DNA of 32,000 bases from Alkanindiges illinoisensis DSM 15370 (GTDB taxonomy: Bacteria > Pseudomonadota > Gammaproteobacteria > Pseudomonadales > Moraxellaceae). Under the pieces are notes generated by a model. That model was given only the letters and a program-made list of their open reading frames with translations, ran no database searches and had not been told where the DNA came from. The position numbers and the translations under genes were made by a program. The stretch lies in the NCBI RefSeq assembly GCF_000619845.1, contig NZ_JHUX01000003.1, forward strand, positions 370,064 to 402,063, written 5' to 3'. The first letter of the stretch is position 1, and each line of letters begins with the position of its first letter. This document shows positions 4,191 through 16,626 of this stretch, in pieces.

Positions 4191-4229
4191 AAAAAAGCTG
4201 CTTTTGCATTGATCAAAAGCAGCTTTTTT
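4191..4229. terminator. bidirectional Rho-independent terminator
   Basis: AAAAAAGCTGCTTTTG - cattgat - CAAAAGCAGCTTTTTT is a 16-bp perfect stem flanked by an A-run and a T-run. It lies between the convergent allA and 2OG oxygenase genes. Confidence 0.8.
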
Positions 4230-4243
4230 ATTAACTGGAGTAA

Positions 4244-5260
4244 TTAATATTTGCCCTCAAAGTTGGCACTAATGCGTTGTTGCAAGTAATCCCGGGCGGT
4301 AATGGCCGGATATTTTTTGTTCGGCCCTTCAATGATGACATCTTCATTGGCCTGGCAGAAAAATGCCAGACTATAGCGGGCACCCTGATACTCATGCGCA
4401 GCCGGATTTTTGACCCGGTGAAAATTGGAAGGCAACTGGTCATCACTCCAGCGCGTGAGCATATCGCCAATATTACAGGTAATCACCTCATCGTGAGGCT
4501 GGATACTGGTCCATTCCTGGTCTTCCATATCCTTGCCCGGGCATACCTGCAAGCCGCCCTGTCCATTGCGCTGGAACAGTAAAGTCAGGCAGTCAAAATC
4601 GGTATGGGCACCAGCACGCCACAGGCCCAACTGGTCTTTTAGGGCTGGGTCAATGGCATAGTAATGCAGCATGCGCAGCGTACTTTGGTAGCTTTGCTTG
4701 GAGGGATCATGCGCCTGTGTGAAAAAATCATCACTAAAGCCCAGCTTATAGGCAAAGCAGGACAGGATTTTCATGCCAGTCTGCCAGCAGGCCTGTTCAA
4801 AGTTCAGCATGGTTTCCTGAAAGTCAGGCAATTCCTGCACGCTGGGCCATAAACCATCCATGCGGGGGCGGGTAATTTGATAGGATTCTTTCTGGTCTGG
4901 TGTATTGGTTGATGGCCTGATCTGTGCCTTGCTTTCCCAGCCTGCATTCCGCTTGAGTGGATACTGTGCCTTTACCTCAGCGGGTAGTGCAAAAAACTGT
5001 TCGGTGCTGGCAAAAGCCTGCTGAATCTGGCTTAAGGGAATGCCATGGTTGGCAACCTGAAAAAATCCAATGTCCACCGCAGCATTCCAGAGCTGGTCAG
5101 CAATCTCAAACTTGCGCTGTTCAAAGTCAGACAAGTCAATAATACGGATTTCTCGGGCAAAGGTTTCCTGTCCCATGGCACCCATGCGGGCTTCTTTTTT
5201 GAGTTCATCGAGGGAATAGGGCGTGGACAGGGTAGGATCAATGGTATTGGAGCCGTTCAT
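4244..5260 (-). CDS. 2-oxoglutarate/Fe(II)-dependent oxygenase (isopenicillin-N-synthase-like family), substrate unknown
   Basis: 338 aa. DIOX_N-like N-terminus (GFFQVANHGIP). HxD...H facial triad (GAHTDFD ... SNFHRV). 2OG-binding RxS (ARYSLAFF). AGGA SD 8 nt before the ATG. Confidence 0.8.
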   Translation of the reverse strand: MNGSNTIDPTLSTPYSLDELKKEARMGAMGQETFAREIRIIDLSDFEQRKFEIADQLWNAAVDIGFFQVANHGIPLSQIQQAFASTEQFFALPAEVKAQYPLKRNAGWESKAQIRPSTNTPDQKESYQITRPRMDGLWPSVQELPDFQETMLNFEQACWQTGMKILSCFAYKLGFSDDFFTQAHDPSKQSYQSTLRMLHYYAIDPALKDQLGLWRAGAHTDFDCLTLLFQRNGQGGLQVCPGKDMEDQEWTSIQPHDEVITCNIGDMLTRWSDDQLPSNFHRVKNPAAHEYQGARYSLAFFCQANEDVIIEGPNKKYPAITARDYLQQRISANFEGKY

Positions 5261-5480
5261 GTTAGTGTTCCTGCATTTACTGAAAAATCAAGGTGTGGCC
5301 CAATATATGCATGGTACTGCCATCGGGTCACGTCTCATGAAAAACACTGACCCTGCGATATTCCTGGAATAGGATCTATCAGGTGTCAGCTATTTTCCGA
5401 GCAATGACCCACATACGCATCATTTTAAATTCTGGCAAAATGACTGTATGTTGAACGCTTCTACTCTGGTGTAGTCAGTA

Positions 5481-5496
5481 AGCAATTGCTGTACCA
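5481..5496 (-). promoter_or_regulatory. sigma-54-like -24/-12 promoter for the 2OG oxygenase gene
   Basis: Minus strand reads TGGTAC-agcaa-TTGCT with correct spacing. It implies a leader of about 210 nt before the ATG at 5260. Confidence 0.5.
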
Positions 5497-5686
5497 TTCT
5501 GGCTTAAAATTTTTTTACTGAATTTTATTGTTTTATATTCAATGAATTAAGGTAATACATGTTCCAGGTAAAATAGACAACAGCACAGTCGCTTTTCCTG
5601 TATTTTCCTGTCTTTATTTAGGTCTGCACCATGATTGAGCAATTTGCCGGCTTATCACCATCGTGAACCACGATGGCGCAGATAAT

Positions 5687-5701
5687 ACTGGTCTGACCAG
5701 T
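5687..5701. promoter_or_regulatory. GntR/FadR-type operator palindrome, copy 3
   Basis: Third identical ACTGGTCTGACCAGT (17-bp version TACTGGTCTGACCAGTA). Lies between the divergent 2OG oxygenase and NMT1-type ABC promoters. Confidence 0.6.
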
Positions 5702-5790
5702 AAGCCACTTTTTTGCAGGGCTGCTTCCTGTTTAAATGATTTTTGGTTTTTGATTTATAAATCATTAGCTTAATTACAAGAAATACAATA

Positions 5791-5806
5791 TGGCATAGCC
5801 TTTGCA
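5791..5806 (+). promoter_or_regulatory. sigma-54-like -24/-12 promoter for the NMT1-type ABC transporter operon
   Basis: TGGCAT-agcct-TTGCA is a near-consensus match. It lies 189 bp upstream of ATG 5995, so the leader is about 175 nt. Confidence 0.6.
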
Positions 5807-5882
5807 AGTTTGTATTCTGAGTATAAGCGGTTAGTGCGTATCAACAACGCATGGGACATTGCTCTGCAGCGAAAGCTGCTCC

Positions 5883-5987
5883 TCAATAGAGGGCGGGTTC
5901 TGCCAGCAGTTCCCGAGAGTTGGCCTATACGACAAGTCCACCCTCTATTGAATAGCAAGTATGTATCGACATTATCTATTCTAGAGG
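5883..5987 (+). promoter_or_regulatory. structured 5' leader with SD / anti-SD / anti-anti-SD arrangement (riboswitch-like; class unassigned)
   Basis: TCAATAGAGGG (5883-5893) is the exact reverse complement of CCCTCTATTGA (5941-5951). The stem extends by GG/CC plus G-U to 5897/5937. CCTCTA (5942-5947) can instead pair with the SD TAGAGG (5982-5987). Two small hairpins lie upstream (5834-5852, and 5866-5879 with a GAAA loop). Confidence 0.35.
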
Positions 5988-5994
5988 TATAGCC

Positions 5995-6987
5995 ATGAAA
6001 AAGAATCATTCTATCCATATGCCACGTTTCGCACTGCTCACTGCGGCTGTCTTGTGCAGCACATTTACTCAAGCCAATGATAAACTGGTTTTACAAACCA
6101 CATGGTATGCCCAGGCAGAGCAGGGCGGTTATTATCAGGCTGTTGCGCAAGGCATTTATAAAAAATACGGACTGGACGTGACGGTAAAGGCAGGCGGCCC
6201 GCAGGTCAATAATATGACCTTACTGCTGGCCAAGCGTGCAGACGTTATTATTAATTATGACCTGCAAGTGCTCAAAGGTATTGAGCAAGGTTTTCCCATC
6301 AAGGCAATTGCAGCACCATTCCAGTTTGATCCGCAAGGCATGCTGACGCATGGTGATGTCAAAAACCTGGCCGGCCTTAAAGGCAAAACCATCCTGGTTT
6401 CTGCCAGTGGGCAAGCCAGCTGGTGGCCATGGTTAAAAGCCAAATATCATCTGGAAGAAAGTCAGGCCCGTCCATACACCTTCAACATGCAGCCATTTCT
6501 GGCCGGCAAGAATGTTGCACAACAAGCCTATGCCACCTCAGAAGTCTTACAGGCCAAAAAAGCAGATCCGGGCAGTAATTTCTTCCTGTTTGCCAATGAG
6601 GGCTATCCGTCCTATGGCGGTATCCTGGTTACCCGCAACGATGTTCTGCAAAGCAAGCCGGATGTCCTGCAGCGCTTTGTCAAGGCTTCCATGGAGGGCT
6701 GGAAAAGCTATCTGGCCAACCCGGCACTGGGTAATGCCCTGATTAAAAAAGAAAACCCGAACATGACTGACGACGTGCTGGCGTTTGGGGTGTCGCAAAT
6801 GAAAAAACTGCATTTGATTGATGGTGGCGATGCGGCAACCAAAGGTTATGGCGTGATGACCGATGCACGCTGGAAAGCCACACGGGATTTTATGGTAGAA
6901 ACCAAGTTACTTGATGCCAAAACCAACTGGTCCAGTGCCTACACCACCCAGTTTTTTGCACCTGCCAGCAAAAAGCCGGCAAAGTAA
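5995..6987 (+). CDS. ABC transporter periplasmic substrate-binding protein, NMT1/THI5-like (NitT/TauT family)
   Basis: 330 aa. Signal peptide ending TFTQA/ND. NMT1/THI5-like fold signature by overall resemblance. SD AGAGG 7 nt upstream. Followed by a cognate ATPase and permease. Confidence 0.85.
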   Translation: MKKNHSIHMPRFALLTAAVLCSTFTQANDKLVLQTTWYAQAEQGGYYQAVAQGIYKKYGLDVTVKAGGPQVNNMTLLLAKRADVIINYDLQVLKGIEQGFPIKAIAAPFQFDPQGMLTHGDVKNLAGLKGKTILVSASGQASWWPWLKAKYHLEESQARPYTFNMQPFLAGKNVAQQAYATSEVLQAKKADPGSNFFLFANEGYPSYGGILVTRNDVLQSKPDVLQRFVKASMEGWKSYLANPALGNALIKKENPNMTDDVLAFGVSQMKKLHLIDGGDAATKGYGVMTDARWKATRDFMVETKLLDAKTNWSSAYTTQFFAPASKKPAK

Positions 6988-8650: not shown

Positions 8651-8662
8651 GGCATTTTGAGA

Positions 8663-10102
8663 ATGAGTCAAATGAATATCTTGATTAAAAACGCCTATGC
8701 CATCCTTACTGGACAGGCAGGGCATCAGGCCAGACATACCGCAACAGATATCCGCATTGTTAATGGCATCATTCAGGATATGGGCAGTCTTACCGCACAG
8801 CCTGATGAACAGGTGATTGATGCCCGGGACTGTGTGATTTATCCGGCCTGGGTCAACACCCATCATCACCTGTTCCAGTCTTTACTTAAAGGCGAACCAC
8901 AGGGCTTAAACCAGAGTTTAACACCGTGGCTGGCCGCAACACCTTATCGCTTCCGGGGATCATTTGATGAAGAAACCTTCAGGCTGGCGGCACGCATCGG
9001 CCTGATTGAACTGTTACGTTCCGGCTGCGCGACCGTGGCTGATCATCATTATTTATACTGGCCGGGCATGCCATTTGATGGCGCGGCTATTTTGTTTGAA
9101 GAAGCCACGCAACTGGGCATGCGCTTTGTGTTGTGCCGTGGCGGTGCGACGCAAACCCGCGGGCTGGAAGCCGACCTGCCACAGGCCATGCGACCGGAAA
9201 AATTTGATGCATTCATGCAGGATGTCGAGCGGCTGGTGGCCACATATCATGACCCATCCGCCAATGCCATGCGCCGGGTTGTCATGGCACCTACCACCAC
9301 GCTGCACTCCACCACGGCACCTGAGCTGCGTGAAACAGCCCGATTGGCCCGGCAACTTAATATTCGGATGCATAGCCATTTATCCGAAACCGTAGATTAT
9401 CTGGATGCCGCCAAAGCCAAGTTTGGCATGACCCCCATCCAGTTTTGTGCCGAACATGACTGGATTGGTGAAGATGTCTGGTTTGCCCATCTGGTCAAAT
9501 TATTGCCGGAAGAAATTGCACTGCTGGGCCAGACCAGAACCGGAATTGCCCATTGTCCGCAAAGCAATGCACGTTTGGGCAGTGGTATTGCTGATCTGGT
9601 TGCGCTTGAACATGCTGGTGTAAAGGTGTCTATCGGGGTTGATGGGGCAGCATCCAACGAGGCGGCGGATATGCTGTCAGAAACCCATGCTGCATGGCTC
9701 TTGCAACGGGCCCGTAAAGGCATGCTGGCACAGCCCCGCTATGAGGGTGGCCTGTTTGAAGGCGGTGCGGATGCGGCGAGTATTGAAGATGTGATTCGCT
9801 GGGGCACTGCTGGCGGCGCACAGGTATTGGGCCTGGATAATATCGGCACGCTTGAGATTGGCAAGGCAGCTGATCTGGTGGTGTACCAGCTTGATGATCC
9901 GCGCTATTTCGGCCTGCATGACATGGCAATTGGACCCGTGGCGAGTGGTGGGCGGGCGCACATTAAAATCATGCTGATTAATGGGAAAGTCGTGATGGAG
10001 CATGACCAGATACCCGGTATCAGTATGCCGGAACTGGCTTTTCAGGCCCAGCAGGCGGTCAGACAGTTACAACAGCGCGCTAGCCGGATTGCTGTTGCCT
10101 AA
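8663..10102 (+). CDS. amidohydrolase-superfamily deaminase (AtzB / 8-oxoguanine-deaminase-like group), substrate unknown
   Basis: Metal ligands WVNTHHHLFQS (HxH), HSHLSET, HCPQSN, GVDGAASN. Last gene of the NMT1-type ABC operon. Start could be TTG 8657, ATG 8663 or ATG 8672. Confidence 0.8.
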   Translation: MSQMNILIKNAYAILTGQAGHQARHTATDIRIVNGIIQDMGSLTAQPDEQVIDARDCVIYPAWVNTHHHLFQSLLKGEPQGLNQSLTPWLAATPYRFRGSFDEETFRLAARIGLIELLRSGCATVADHHYLYWPGMPFDGAAILFEEATQLGMRFVLCRGGATQTRGLEADLPQAMRPEKFDAFMQDVERLVATYHDPSANAMRRVVMAPTTTLHSTTAPELRETARLARQLNIRMHSHLSETVDYLDAAKAKFGMTPIQFCAEHDWIGEDVWFAHLVKLLPEEIALLGQTRTGIAHCPQSNARLGSGIADLVALEHAGVKVSIGVDGAASNEAADMLSETHAAWLLQRARKGMLAQPRYEGGLFEGGADAASIEDVIRWGTAGGAQVLGLDNIGTLEIGKAADLVVYQLDDPRYFGLHDMAIGPVASGGRAHIKIMLINGKVVMEHDQIPGISMPELAFQAQQAVRQLQQRASRIAVA

Positions 10103-10116
10103 TTGATCCGGTTTAC

Positions 10117-10182
10117 AGTATCCCTATAGTGAGGAGCCTGACTTGTATTGTGCATCAGTTTCAATGCACATTTAGGGATACT
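10117..10182 (+). repeat. nested inverted repeats in the amidohydrolase-puuE spacer
   Basis: AGTATCCCTA (10117-10126) pairs with TAGGGATACT (10173-10182). The inner pair is TGTGCAT (10149-10155) with ATGCACA (10164-10170). An adjacent hairpin is CGGATCA-cca-TGATCCG (10184-10200). No T-run follows. Confidence 0.45.
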
Positions 10183-10292
10183 ACGGATCACCATGATCCG
10201 CAACGTCCTGTAAGTAATGCAAGGCCTGTTTGGAACCGATTAAGCTTTAGACCGGATTGTTAAAGCATTTGTAAAAACTCAAAGGTAGAGCC

Positions 10293-11264: not shown

Positions 11265-11374
11265 TTCATCATAAACGATGGACAGCAGAAAAATGAGTCT
11301 GGCAGGCTCAGGTATGACTATGCCTGCATGCTGACTATTGCTCAATCCATATAACGGTACAGTTCGGCTGGTAC

Positions 11375-11390
11375 TGGCATAAACCCTGCT
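11375..11390 (+). promoter_or_regulatory. sigma-54-like -24/-12 element upstream of guaD
   Basis: TGGCAT-aaacc-CTGCT with correct GG-N10-GC spacing, 118 bp upstream of ATG 11508. Confidence 0.4.
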
Positions 11391-11507
11391 GCTCCTTGGA
11401 ATGATAGGGGTCTATTTCAGTATGACACCTGCCAGAATTTATAGTAAAGCCCGCGTGATACATCAGTGAGTCATGCAGGCCGGTCTGCTGTTAGCTCAGG
11501 AATTGAT

Positions 11508-12845: not shown

Positions 12846-12995
12846 TCGCACAAAGGTTGGTCTTTAGGTCGGTGACACCAGGTTTAAGTGACGTATCCCA
12901 AATTGTCTGCTTAGTGAGGCACGGGTTTGATGTTTATTGCTATTAATACATAGACTTTATTTGCAAAATGCAAAATCCGGAACAAAAATAGTTTC

Positions 12996-13011
12996 TGGTA
13001 CTGGCTTTGCT
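12996..13011 (+). promoter_or_regulatory. sigma-54-like -24/-12 promoter for uraD-hiuH
   Basis: TGGTAC-tggct-TTGCT with correct spacing, 68-107 bp upstream of the candidate uraD starts. Confidence 0.5.
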
Positions 13012-13117
13012 GGGCATTGATAGAGCACTAAAAAAATGATGGGTGTGTTTGGCCTGACCCGGCTGGATTATTGGGGCGATGACTTTGGCGATCAATTGGA
13101 GAATTTTCTTGAAACTC

Positions 13118-16464: not shown

Positions 16465-16523
16465 TGCAGGTGTGTAAGGCGCAGCACTGCGCTTGCCTAT
16501 GAGCCACAAGATGGCATAAAGCT

Positions 16524-16554
16524 AAAAAACCCCTAATACGTTTAGGGGTTTTTT
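16524..16554. terminator. bidirectional Rho-independent terminator
   Basis: AAAAAA-CCCCTAA-tacgt-TTAGGGG-TTTTTT between the convergent porin and amidohydrolase genes. Confidence 0.85.
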
Positions 16555-16626
16555 ATAGCTCAACTGATCTGATTTTGTTTTATAGATAGGGTGTTGCTTC
16601 TCGTTGTTTAGAGAGGCAATCTGATA

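Follow-up and report, generated by a model that had tools for sequence, protein, structure and literature searches.

We analyzed a 32-kb stretch of DNA from Alkanindiges illinoisensis DSM 15370 (contig NZ_JHUX01000003.1; hereafter the window) and found that the leader of its NMT1-type ABC transporter operon begins with an aptamer of the known xanthine/uric-acid riboswitch class (NMT1 motif, RF03054) and continues into a conserved expression platform that was previously undescribed. The aptamer is a plain member of that class, in a known gene context and with the genus (Acinetobacter) already in the published alignment; the class was reported by Yu & Breaker in 2020 (PMC7373994) and its crystal structure by Xu et al. 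in 2021 (PMC8266621). The platform consists of a hairpin next to the aptamer (P3), a small hairpin formed by segments a and b (a:b), a third hairpin (HP1), an AGAG element, and a segment c that can pair either with b (b:c) or with e, the region of the Shine-Dalgarno (SD) sequence (c:e). We put at even chances the proposal that riboswitches of this type, found ahead of binding-protein genes in Acinetobacter and some Enterobacteriaceae, are switched on by their ligand through a two-step relay that uses a former SD sequence, AGAG, and act together with their promoters as an AND gate.

Scanning the window against Rfam 15 at gathering thresholds returned two matches, both to RF03054 (xanthine riboswitch, NMT1 RNA). 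The plus-strand match at 5814-5869 covers the full model (positions 1-56 of 56) and reaches 52.0 bits (E 5.9e-09), where the gathering score is 36. It was also the top match in a permissive scan of 5200-6100 at E<=10, in which the remainder was noise. The original prediction, made from the letters of the stretch, had named the xanthine- and urate-binding NMT1 motif as a possible class, had suggested the Rfam search, and had otherwise held out a new ligand-sensing leader. The search came down on the side of the known class, in whose published alignment orthologous Acinetobacter loci already stand. The idea of a structured leader acting as a sensor held for the 5' part (5814-5869), where the sensor is present, and fell for the region enclosed by the long stem described below, which is not the sensor.

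To gather relatives we used a genome scan with the binding protein encoded by the first gene of the operon. The 80 loci returned come from Acinetobacter spp., Franconibacter, and more distant pseudomonads and beta-proteobacteria; because identity to the Acinetobacter loci was 77-80%, the window's own species is absent among them. The aptamer lies upstream in nearly all of the 80 loci. Each of 16 tested representatives scored above the RF03054 gathering score (16/16), and no other Rfam family matched in those 16 loci. All platform counts given here refer to a set of 33 orthologous leaders from Acinetobacter spp. and Franconibacter. Collecting such leaders, as had been advised at the outset, brought out both a shared architecture and covariation.

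Aligned to RF03054, the aptamer comprises stem P1 (GAGUA/UGCUC, 5819-5823/5860-5864), junction J1 (UAAGCG, 5824-5829, with its 3' strand CAU at 5857-5859), P2a (5831-5832/5855-5856), P2b (GTGCGT/ACGCAT, 5834-5839/5847-5852), and J2 (GG, 5853-5854). P2b is the hairpin that the original prediction had located exactly, at 5834-5852. P1 and P2 are 100% paired in the 33 leaders, with double changes at 4 P2 pairs. The pocket nucleotides in crystal numbering are A8, A9, G10, C11, G12, the J2 purines, A39, and U40 (PMC8266621). AAGCG (5825-5829), GG (5853-5854), and CAU (5857-5859) equal the Rfam consensus, and in the crystal structure (PMC8266621) xanthine is clamped by a G and a U whose counterparts here are G5827 and U5859. 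The sole departure is U5824, which sits at the crystal G7 position, the first position of J1. Here the leader differs from most of the class, U being found there in 65 of the ~567 rows of the published alignment, while the full-length aptamer match above gathering, the pocket nucleotides, the proteobacterial host, and the lack of a terminator are all as in other members. By sequence, xanthine or urate would be the ligand of this leader.

The U at the 5824 column is a general trait of the Acinetobacter/Franconibacter-type binding-protein aptamers, all of which have U (one has A) in that column (GAGUAUAAGCG vs GAGUAGAAGCG). The divergent dioxygenase-associated copies mostly retain G, the exceptions being L028 and L029, with GAGUAUAA. 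The biochemically tested constructs, including that of S. plymuthica, have G at the crystal G7 position (PMC7373994).

The seed alignment already holds orthologous aptamers from Acinetobacter sp. ANC 3929, Acinetobacter genomosp. 15BJ, and 'Enterobacter' pulveris, and these rows sit on the same contigs as L023, L020, and L027, respectively, of our set. The gene setting also fits the class: a member of the Proteobacteria with an NMT1-domain binding protein, an amidohydrolase, and a divergent dioxygenase that has its own aptamer. As in H. intermedia (PMC7373994), two aptamers face each other ahead of pcbC-like dioxygenase and NMT1/tauA-type genes. Where the published NMT1 model ends at the last P1 base, the window adds a platform of 125 nt.

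No Rfam family, ykkC included, matches 5870-5994, the portion of the leader past the aptamer. The single-sequence fold of the leader is only moderately unusual (z-score -2.65 vs shuffles); the case for the platform rests mainly on comparison with relatives. The order of elements 3' of the aptamer in the 33 leaders is P3, a, b, HP1, Y, a second hairpin, c with an attached GAAUAGC, a linker, and e, where Y denotes the AGAG element with its extension. RNAalifold run on a MAFFT alignment of the leaders recovered P1, P2, P3, a:b (UCCUC/GGGGA), and HP1.

P3 (GCAGC-GAAA-GCUGC, 5866-5879) adjoins the aptamer directly and corresponds exactly to a GAAA-tetraloop hairpin noted in the original prediction. 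It is 100% paired in the 33 leaders, its closing pair being mostly A-U, G-U in 4, and G-C in the window, and beta-proteobacterial relatives have a hairpin at the corresponding position. The a:b hairpin that follows in the RNAalifold consensus (UCCUC-AAUA-GAGGG, 5880-5893) is 97% paired, with one-sided changes only; its segment a (UCCUC, 5880-5884) resembles an anti-SD sequence. HP1 (CGGGUUCUG-CCAG-CAGUUCCCG, 5894-5915) is variable in sequence and shows both-sided changes at 8/8 pairs, with 92% of cells paired. Y (5916-5928) starts with AGAG (5916-5919), followed by an extension complementary to the aptamer segment termed X below. G5917, A5918, and G5919 are invariant, and Y lies 0-1 nt from HP1 in all 33 leaders. 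The second hairpin, after Y, is variable and is absent in Franconibacter.

The segments that carry the switch come next. Segment b, the G-rich 5' arm of the long stem and the putative anti-anti-SD, is TCAATAGAGGG (5883-5893) and holds UAGAGG (5887-5892). Segment c (5941-5956), the C-rich 3' arm and putative anti-SD, consists of CCCUCUAUUGA with the conserved GAAUAGC and contains CCCTCTATTGA (5941-5951). Segment e (5976-5987) is CUAUUC followed by the SD UAGAGG (5982-5987), which lies 7 nt before the ATG at 5995. The SD is paired to c in the minimum-energy fold of the window leader. We found no intrinsic terminator-like site in the leader, from which control at the level of translation is presumed; the class as a whole is viewed as controlling translation (PMC7373994).

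TCAATAGAGGG (5883-5893) and CCCTCTATTGA (5941-5951) are perfect reverse complements, as originally predicted, and the stem continues to 5895-5897/5937-5939 past one C.A mismatch, in keeping with the extension to 5897/5937 that had been proposed for it. In a repeat search the long stem came out as a 20-nt repeat with 85% complementarity (5877-5896/5938-5957), and the anti-SD/SD pair (5945-5955/5976-5986) was found as well. The 32-kb window has only 4 places with a perfect 11-nt inverted repeat whose loop is <=100 nt, against a chance expectation of ~1.3.

Column counts on the MAFFT alignment were blurred by register shifts (b:c 72.6% and c:e 82% paired), and we therefore used an alignment-free test that compares cognate with non-cognate duplexes. 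Among 13 lineage representatives, the mean b:c energy was -15.3 kcal/mol for cognate and -11.5 kcal/mol for non-cognate arms. Individual cognate values were -21.2 kcal/mol for the window, -18.5 for L026, -19.5 for L028, and -16.3 for L030, against ~-9 to -12 with foreign arms. The outer pairs differ completely by lineage: the arms are UCAAUAGAGGG / CCCUCUAUUGA in the window, UUUAGGGG / CCCCUAAA in L001, GUCAGGGG / CCCCUGAU in L026, and CAAUGGGGAA / UUCCCCAUUG in L030. The preference for cognate arms, together with these lineage-specific outer pairs, indicates that the long stem is real and under selection.

In the window, c has two possible partners, b (11 bp) and e (6+6 bp). The window c:e duplex has an energy of -13.1 kcal/mol vs -5.5+-2.1 kcal/mol for shuffled c, and in L001 UACCCCUAA pairs with UUAGGGGUA over 9 bp. 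The three partners co-vary, reading UAGAGG/CCUCUA/UAGAGG in the window and UUAGGGG/CCCCUAA/UUAGGGG in L001. Comparison of the leaders thus supports, in the main clades, a scheme of anti-anti-SD, anti-SD, and SD, which the original prediction had drawn from CCTCTA in the 3' arm and the recurrence of TAGAGG at the SD (5982-5987) and in the 5' arm (5887-5892).

Upstream of the aptamer, the original prediction had described a sigma-54-like promoter, and this also stood up in the relatives. Its -24/-12 box, TGGCATAGCCTTTGCA (5791-5806, plus strand), has the form TGGCAY-N5-YTTGCW, which is kept in 33/33 leaders at a fixed 27-28 nt 5' of the G of GAGUA. The sigma-54 consensus is TGGCAC-N5-TTGCW, with GG at -24, GC at -12, and exact spacing, and transcription from such promoters begins ~12 nt past the -12 GC. 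By this rule the transcript would start at ~5817, two bases ahead of P1, so that the aptamer would open the mRNA. A second sigma-54-type box, TGGTACAGCAATTGCT (5496-5481, minus strand), lies ahead of the divergent aptamer and is kept in 22/22 relatives. With a box ahead of each aptamer, the two divergent sigma-54 transcripts probably each carry a riboswitch at their very 5' end. The AT-rich ~290 nt between the boxes (5497-5790) should contain activator (enhancer) sites. An 8-bp perfect inverted repeat, AATGATTT/AAATCATT, is found at 5735-5766, between the two boxes.

How the aptamer might govern the choice between b:c and c:e is suggested by a second pair of complementary segments. X (5851-5865) is the 3' half of the aptamer, and its CUCU (5862-5865) includes the P1 3' strand; in constrained folds its alternative partner is Y, whose AGAG is complementary to CUCU at the end of that strand. 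The sequence of X, GGGACAUUGCUCU, is invariant in the 33 leaders. X, P3, a:b, HP1, and Y are separated by 0-1 unpaired nt in 33/33 leaders, and in the window the segments follow one another as 5862-5865, 5866-5879, 5880-5893, 5894-5915, and 5916-5919. As the segments are gap-free, X:Y pairing would close a perfect four-way junction. Such a junction accounts for the conserved bases that lie outside covarying helices, namely UCCUC, GGGGA, the C-G pair closing HP1, and AGAG. We propose from the models that X:Y pairing takes place; only the short CUCU:AGAG core is general across lineages.

Calculated energies place the two states near each other. In transcripts cut at Y+10, the X:Y state is favored over the aptamer state by only 1.9+-1.2 kcal/mol (range -4.6 to +0.9), a balance that ligand binding could tip. 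When the window leader was folded at increasing lengths, the aptamer formed first, then P3, a:b, and HP1, and the anti-aptamer fold appeared once Y was made; the aptamer and b:c were favored once c was made, and the anti-aptamer fold and c:e once the SD was made. In partition-function calculations the cost of opening the SD was lower with P1 formed in 29/33 leaders, by a mean difference of -1.4 kcal/mol (-1.7 in the window, roughly tenfold).

The relay that we propose on these grounds would run as follows. Transcription from the sigma-54 start at ~5817 would produce the aptamer (5819-5864) first and the 125-nt translational platform after it. Free of ligand, CUCU (5862-5865) would pair with AGAG (5916-5919) and close the linker-free four-way junction with P3, a:b, and HP1. 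Because this junction encloses b, b:c would be topologically excluded for as long as X:Y stands; c (5941-5956) would then be available to CUAUUC-UAGAGG (5976-5987), and pairing of the two would shut the ribosome binding site. When xanthine or urate is bound, it would hold P1, and AGAG would remain single-stranded. Segment c could then oust UCCUC from the 5-bp a:b hairpin and form the long stem of 8-11 bp (11 bp in the window) with its three-way junction, leaving the SD exposed and the operon translated. The result would be an ON switch, and a sigma-54 promoter in series with an ON switch would make an AND gate that requires an activator signal, probably nitrogen limitation, and an oxidized purine. 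We give this full sequence of steps, with X:Y in the ligand-free and b:c in the ligand-bound state, a one-in-two likelihood.

Several observations weigh against the relay. X does not vary among the 33 leaders, which leaves X:Y no room for covariation there; the short X:Y duplex of the window is no better than shuffles (-9.1 vs -7.1+-2.4). The longer complementarity between Y and the aptamer is -18.1 for cognate vs -16.5 for non-cognate partners and reaches significance in only about half of the lineages. When P1 is enforced, the window leader has three sub-states no more than 1.6 kcal/mol apart, and two of them still hide the SD, one by pairing UCCUC itself with GAGG. The c:e helix is weak in L028-L030, and the aptamer has U at the crystal G7 position, where most members have G. 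In beta-proteobacterial relatives, where the corresponding partner of X is a genuine SD, the test of cognate vs non-cognate X:SD duplexes was marginal (permutation p=0.056). Finally, the only leader of the class that has been tested with a reporter, that of H. intermedia, was read as OFF, and our coupling calculation gives an ON-type sign for that same leader. The calculation therefore cannot call direction.

Two candidate lines of support were dropped for these reasons. One was an ON/OFF call from thermodynamics: 29/33 leaders are ON-type, but H. intermedia has the same sign, and the three sub-states lie within 1.6 kcal/mol. The other was a long anti-aptamer helix, which the minimum-energy fold of the window draws as ~37 bp with imperfections, and which was significant in about half of the lineages and was not cognate-specific.

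For the direction of the switch, we judge ON to be at even odds or a shade better. The biology leans the same way as the structure, in that the purine-scavenging transporter would be expressed only under nitrogen shortage and with an oxidized purine at hand. That the class should have activating members was the expectation of its discoverers (PMC7373994).

An OFF switch is the strongest competitor, and we consider it doubtful. In such a switch the ligand-stabilized P1 would stack on P3 and so favor P3, a:b, and c:e, hiding the ribosome binding site; without ligand, P3 would be weaker, and b:c would form, extended by pairing of GAAUAGC with the P3 3' arm, leaving the site open. It has in its favor the one reporter test of the class, in which the H. 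intermedia leader was assayed in E. coli with a single binding-dead mutant and read as OFF, and also the rationale given there, in which the steps served by the controlled genes (transport, deaminase, dioxygenase) come before xanthine (PMC7373994). The geometry required for stacking is present, since P3 begins one nucleotide past the last P1 pair (C5864) in all 33 leaders, and most relatives fold into a:b plus c:e when P1 is enforced. GCUGUUC (the P3 3' arm plus a) is a possible partner of GAAUAGC, and the minimum-energy fold of L007 has this pairing, but the sole informative change in the P3 3' arm, a U to C in the window, is uncompensated in GAAUAGC. An OFF switch also leaves the invariant AGAG and the gap-free four-way junction without a role, and nothing was seen in the ligand-free state that would keep c off the SD. 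The computed coupling is ON-type in 29/33 leaders, though, as noted above, that calculation does not discriminate.

It is improbable, in our assessment, that regulation bypasses the ribosome binding site, acting by Rho-dependent termination or mRNA decay with the hairpins serving in stabilization or processing. The thermodynamic models do keep the SD mostly paired in every state, the leader is long (125 nt), and direct control of transcription is rare in Proteobacteria, which leaves indirect routes (PMC7373994). Against this, the three-way co-variation of b, c, and the SD points specifically to SD occlusion, the leader contains no terminator, and a C-rich unstructured stretch suited to Rho loading is not evident in a leader that is AU-rich and highly paired.

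Still less likely, to the point of being a long shot, is that the three-way junction at 5883-5951 is itself an undescribed ligand-binding aptamer, standing in tandem with the one for xanthine. The conservation of the junction, the covariation of its stem, the invariance of the triplet GAG within it, and the lack of an Rfam family match would suit such an aptamer, and tandem purine-related riboswitches are known (reference list of PMC7373994). The junction strands, however, are unconserved beyond (G)AGAG, the apparent 'GAC' being GGC in the window and GAU or GAA in L028/L030; hairpin 2 is variable and dispensable, being absent in Franconibacter; and alternative pairing explains every conserved nucleotide. 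The domain moreover follows the NMT1 aptamer in all 33 leaders (aptamer-less copies were not searched for). On these points we rejected a second aptamer in the junction.

A ykkC (guanidine-I) type core in the enclosed region, raised in the original prediction from the likeness of GGGUUC...CCCGAGAG to the ykkC consensus, has next to no chance of being right, as no ykkC/guanidine family appears among the Rfam matches (5200-6100 with permissive filters at E<=10, or the whole window at gathering score), GGGUUC sits in HP1 in a sequence not kept in relatives, GAGAG is explained by pairing with the aptamer strand, and, beyond a short GAGAG-containing string in common, the gene context is different.

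Two further features of the platform stand apart from these readings. GAAUAGC (5950-5956) is kept as a sequence in the window and 28 leaders, and its pairing partner varies by clade. In the window and the L003 clade, the partner is the CUAUUC before the SD, and elsewhere GAAUAGC may pair with GCUGUUC (the P3 3' arm plus a). We considered this last pairing as an extension of the long stem and set it aside; it is possible in most leaders, but the window U-to-C change is uncompensated. In many relatives GAAUAGC lies within an A-rich run (AAAAAGAAUAGCAAG) that is like repeated A-R-N triplets, and it may be a site for a protein or Hfq. A small open reading frame after GAGAG in Acinetobacter-type leaders was likewise considered and rejected: the AUG is found only in some lineages, 2 nt from GAGAG, and the frames are unconserved. 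The source of that AUG is AAAUGU, a complement of ACAUU in the aptamer.

The proposed relay has parallels among known translational riboswitches. The thiamine pyrophosphate (TPP) riboswitch of E. coli thiM occludes its SD by a three-partner arrangement of anti-SD and anti-anti-SD, and the add adenine riboswitch of Vibrio vulnificus is a translational ON switch. In these, as in the window, a strand of the closing helix picks between two partners and the outcome is relayed to the mask of the SD. The window differs from them in its aptamer class and ligand, in having two relays (X:Y vs P1 and a:b vs b:c, then c:e), and in the gap-free four-way junction of its proposed ligand-free state. From the tested NMT1 member, reported OFF, it differs in that our reading of its platform predicts ON.

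More distant relatives (L032-L078, from beta-proteobacteria and pseudomonads) have short platforms, consisting of the aptamer, a hairpin in the place of P3, 1-2 hairpins, and a purine-rich element (GAGAG / AAGGAG) at the place of Y. The aptamer, the P3-place hairpin, and a purine-rich element at the AGAG place are thus common to both types. In the short platforms a genuine SD stands at the Y place (AAGGAG, GAGAGAG, AAGAGAGAA), with an ATG 1-9 nt past it, whereas the Acinetobacter type is without a start codon after AGAG and has an added second module of c, linker, and true SD. In most distant lineages that SD is the best partner, within 115 nt, of the P1 3' strand and its flank. Matching X:SD differences are seen as CUCGUG:CACGAG in Herbaspirillum, GCUCUC:GAGAGC in Cupriavidus, and CUCUUG:CAAGAG in others. 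As covariation between the P1 3' flank and the SD this is suggestive and, at the p value given above (0.056), marginal overall, and we did not retain it. The H. intermedia leader has no significant X:SD complementarity and therefore may work differently.

The SD and ATG of the short platforms (for example L033:2165-2500) lie 60-95 nt 3' of the aptamer and 150-300 nt 5' of the ATG of the binding-protein signal peptide. The frame opened there runs stop-free into the binding-protein frame in 12/16 loci and ends after 19-67 codons in 4, and its peptide is poorly conserved (MQLPQ... in Paraburkholderia). It could be an upstream open reading frame, a translational-coupling device, or an annotation trap.

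Our literature search brought up no publication dealing with this riboswitch in Acinetobacter or with its platform. At the least, two regulatory RNAs in a purine-catabolic island are now correctly annotated, and there is no 'new' sensor to chase. The expression platform of the class has never been dissected, and the relay is a concrete model that mutations can test. Activation by ligand is what the architecture, the sigma-54 promoters, and the catabolic setting all suggest, and the OFF label comes from a single heterologous reporter. Should the switch prove to be ON, it would change how these riboswitches are read in genome annotation and bring the class-wide 'OFF' label into question, it would offer a natural ON-type part responsive to xanthine/oxypurinol for engineering, and it would supply the activating kind of member on whose existence the discoverers of the class had speculated.

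The second RF03054 match (5394-5471, minus strand, 47.8 bits) lies ahead of the divergent gene for a pcbC-like 2OG-Fe(II) dioxygenase (4244-5260, minus strand, start ATG at 5260). This aptamer has a long P2 insertion, and its leader extends ~133 nt to the ATG. The layout of the leader differs from that on the plus strand, being without the series of P3, UCCUC, and AGAG; it has CAGGGUCAGUG...GUGACCCG, a mimic of the aptamer's GUGGGUCAUUG. A divergent aptamer copy is common to many Acinetobacter relatives.

By domain and family annotation the window is a purine-catabolic island. The plus-strand operon begins with the NMT1/THI5-type periplasmic binding protein (5995-6987; Pfam PF09084, 4.8e-25), followed by an ABC ATPase and a permease (PF00005 and PF00528). 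Next in the operon comes a PRK12393-type amidohydrolase related to 8-oxoguanine deaminase (8657-10102; PF01979; NCBIfam NF009059). The island also holds the HpxO urate hydroxylase with a GntR regulator, allantoicase and ureidoglycolate lyase, PuuE allantoinase, guanine deaminase, and OHCU decarboxylase, a LysR regulator, and XdhABC with adenosine deaminase. The amidohydrolase, PuuE, guanine deaminase, and OHCU decarboxylase genes are set apart by gaps of 190-230 nt (10103-10292, 11265-11465, and 12846-13078), and none of the three matched an Rfam family in the window scan at gathering thresholds.

The other perfect 11-nt inverted repeats of the window lie away from the leader. One, with a 47-nt loop, is inside the PRK12393 amidohydrolase gene (8807-8875), and those at ~4191-4230 and ~16523-16556 are just past convergent gene ends and look terminator-like. 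Among the relatives, the riboswitch leader of Acinetobacter genomosp. 15BJ (L020:1160-2500) is intact and the binding-protein gene behind it is broken after ~30 codons. The break is a ~1.3-kb insertion with the look of an insertion sequence, carrying a transposase-like frame on the opposite strand.

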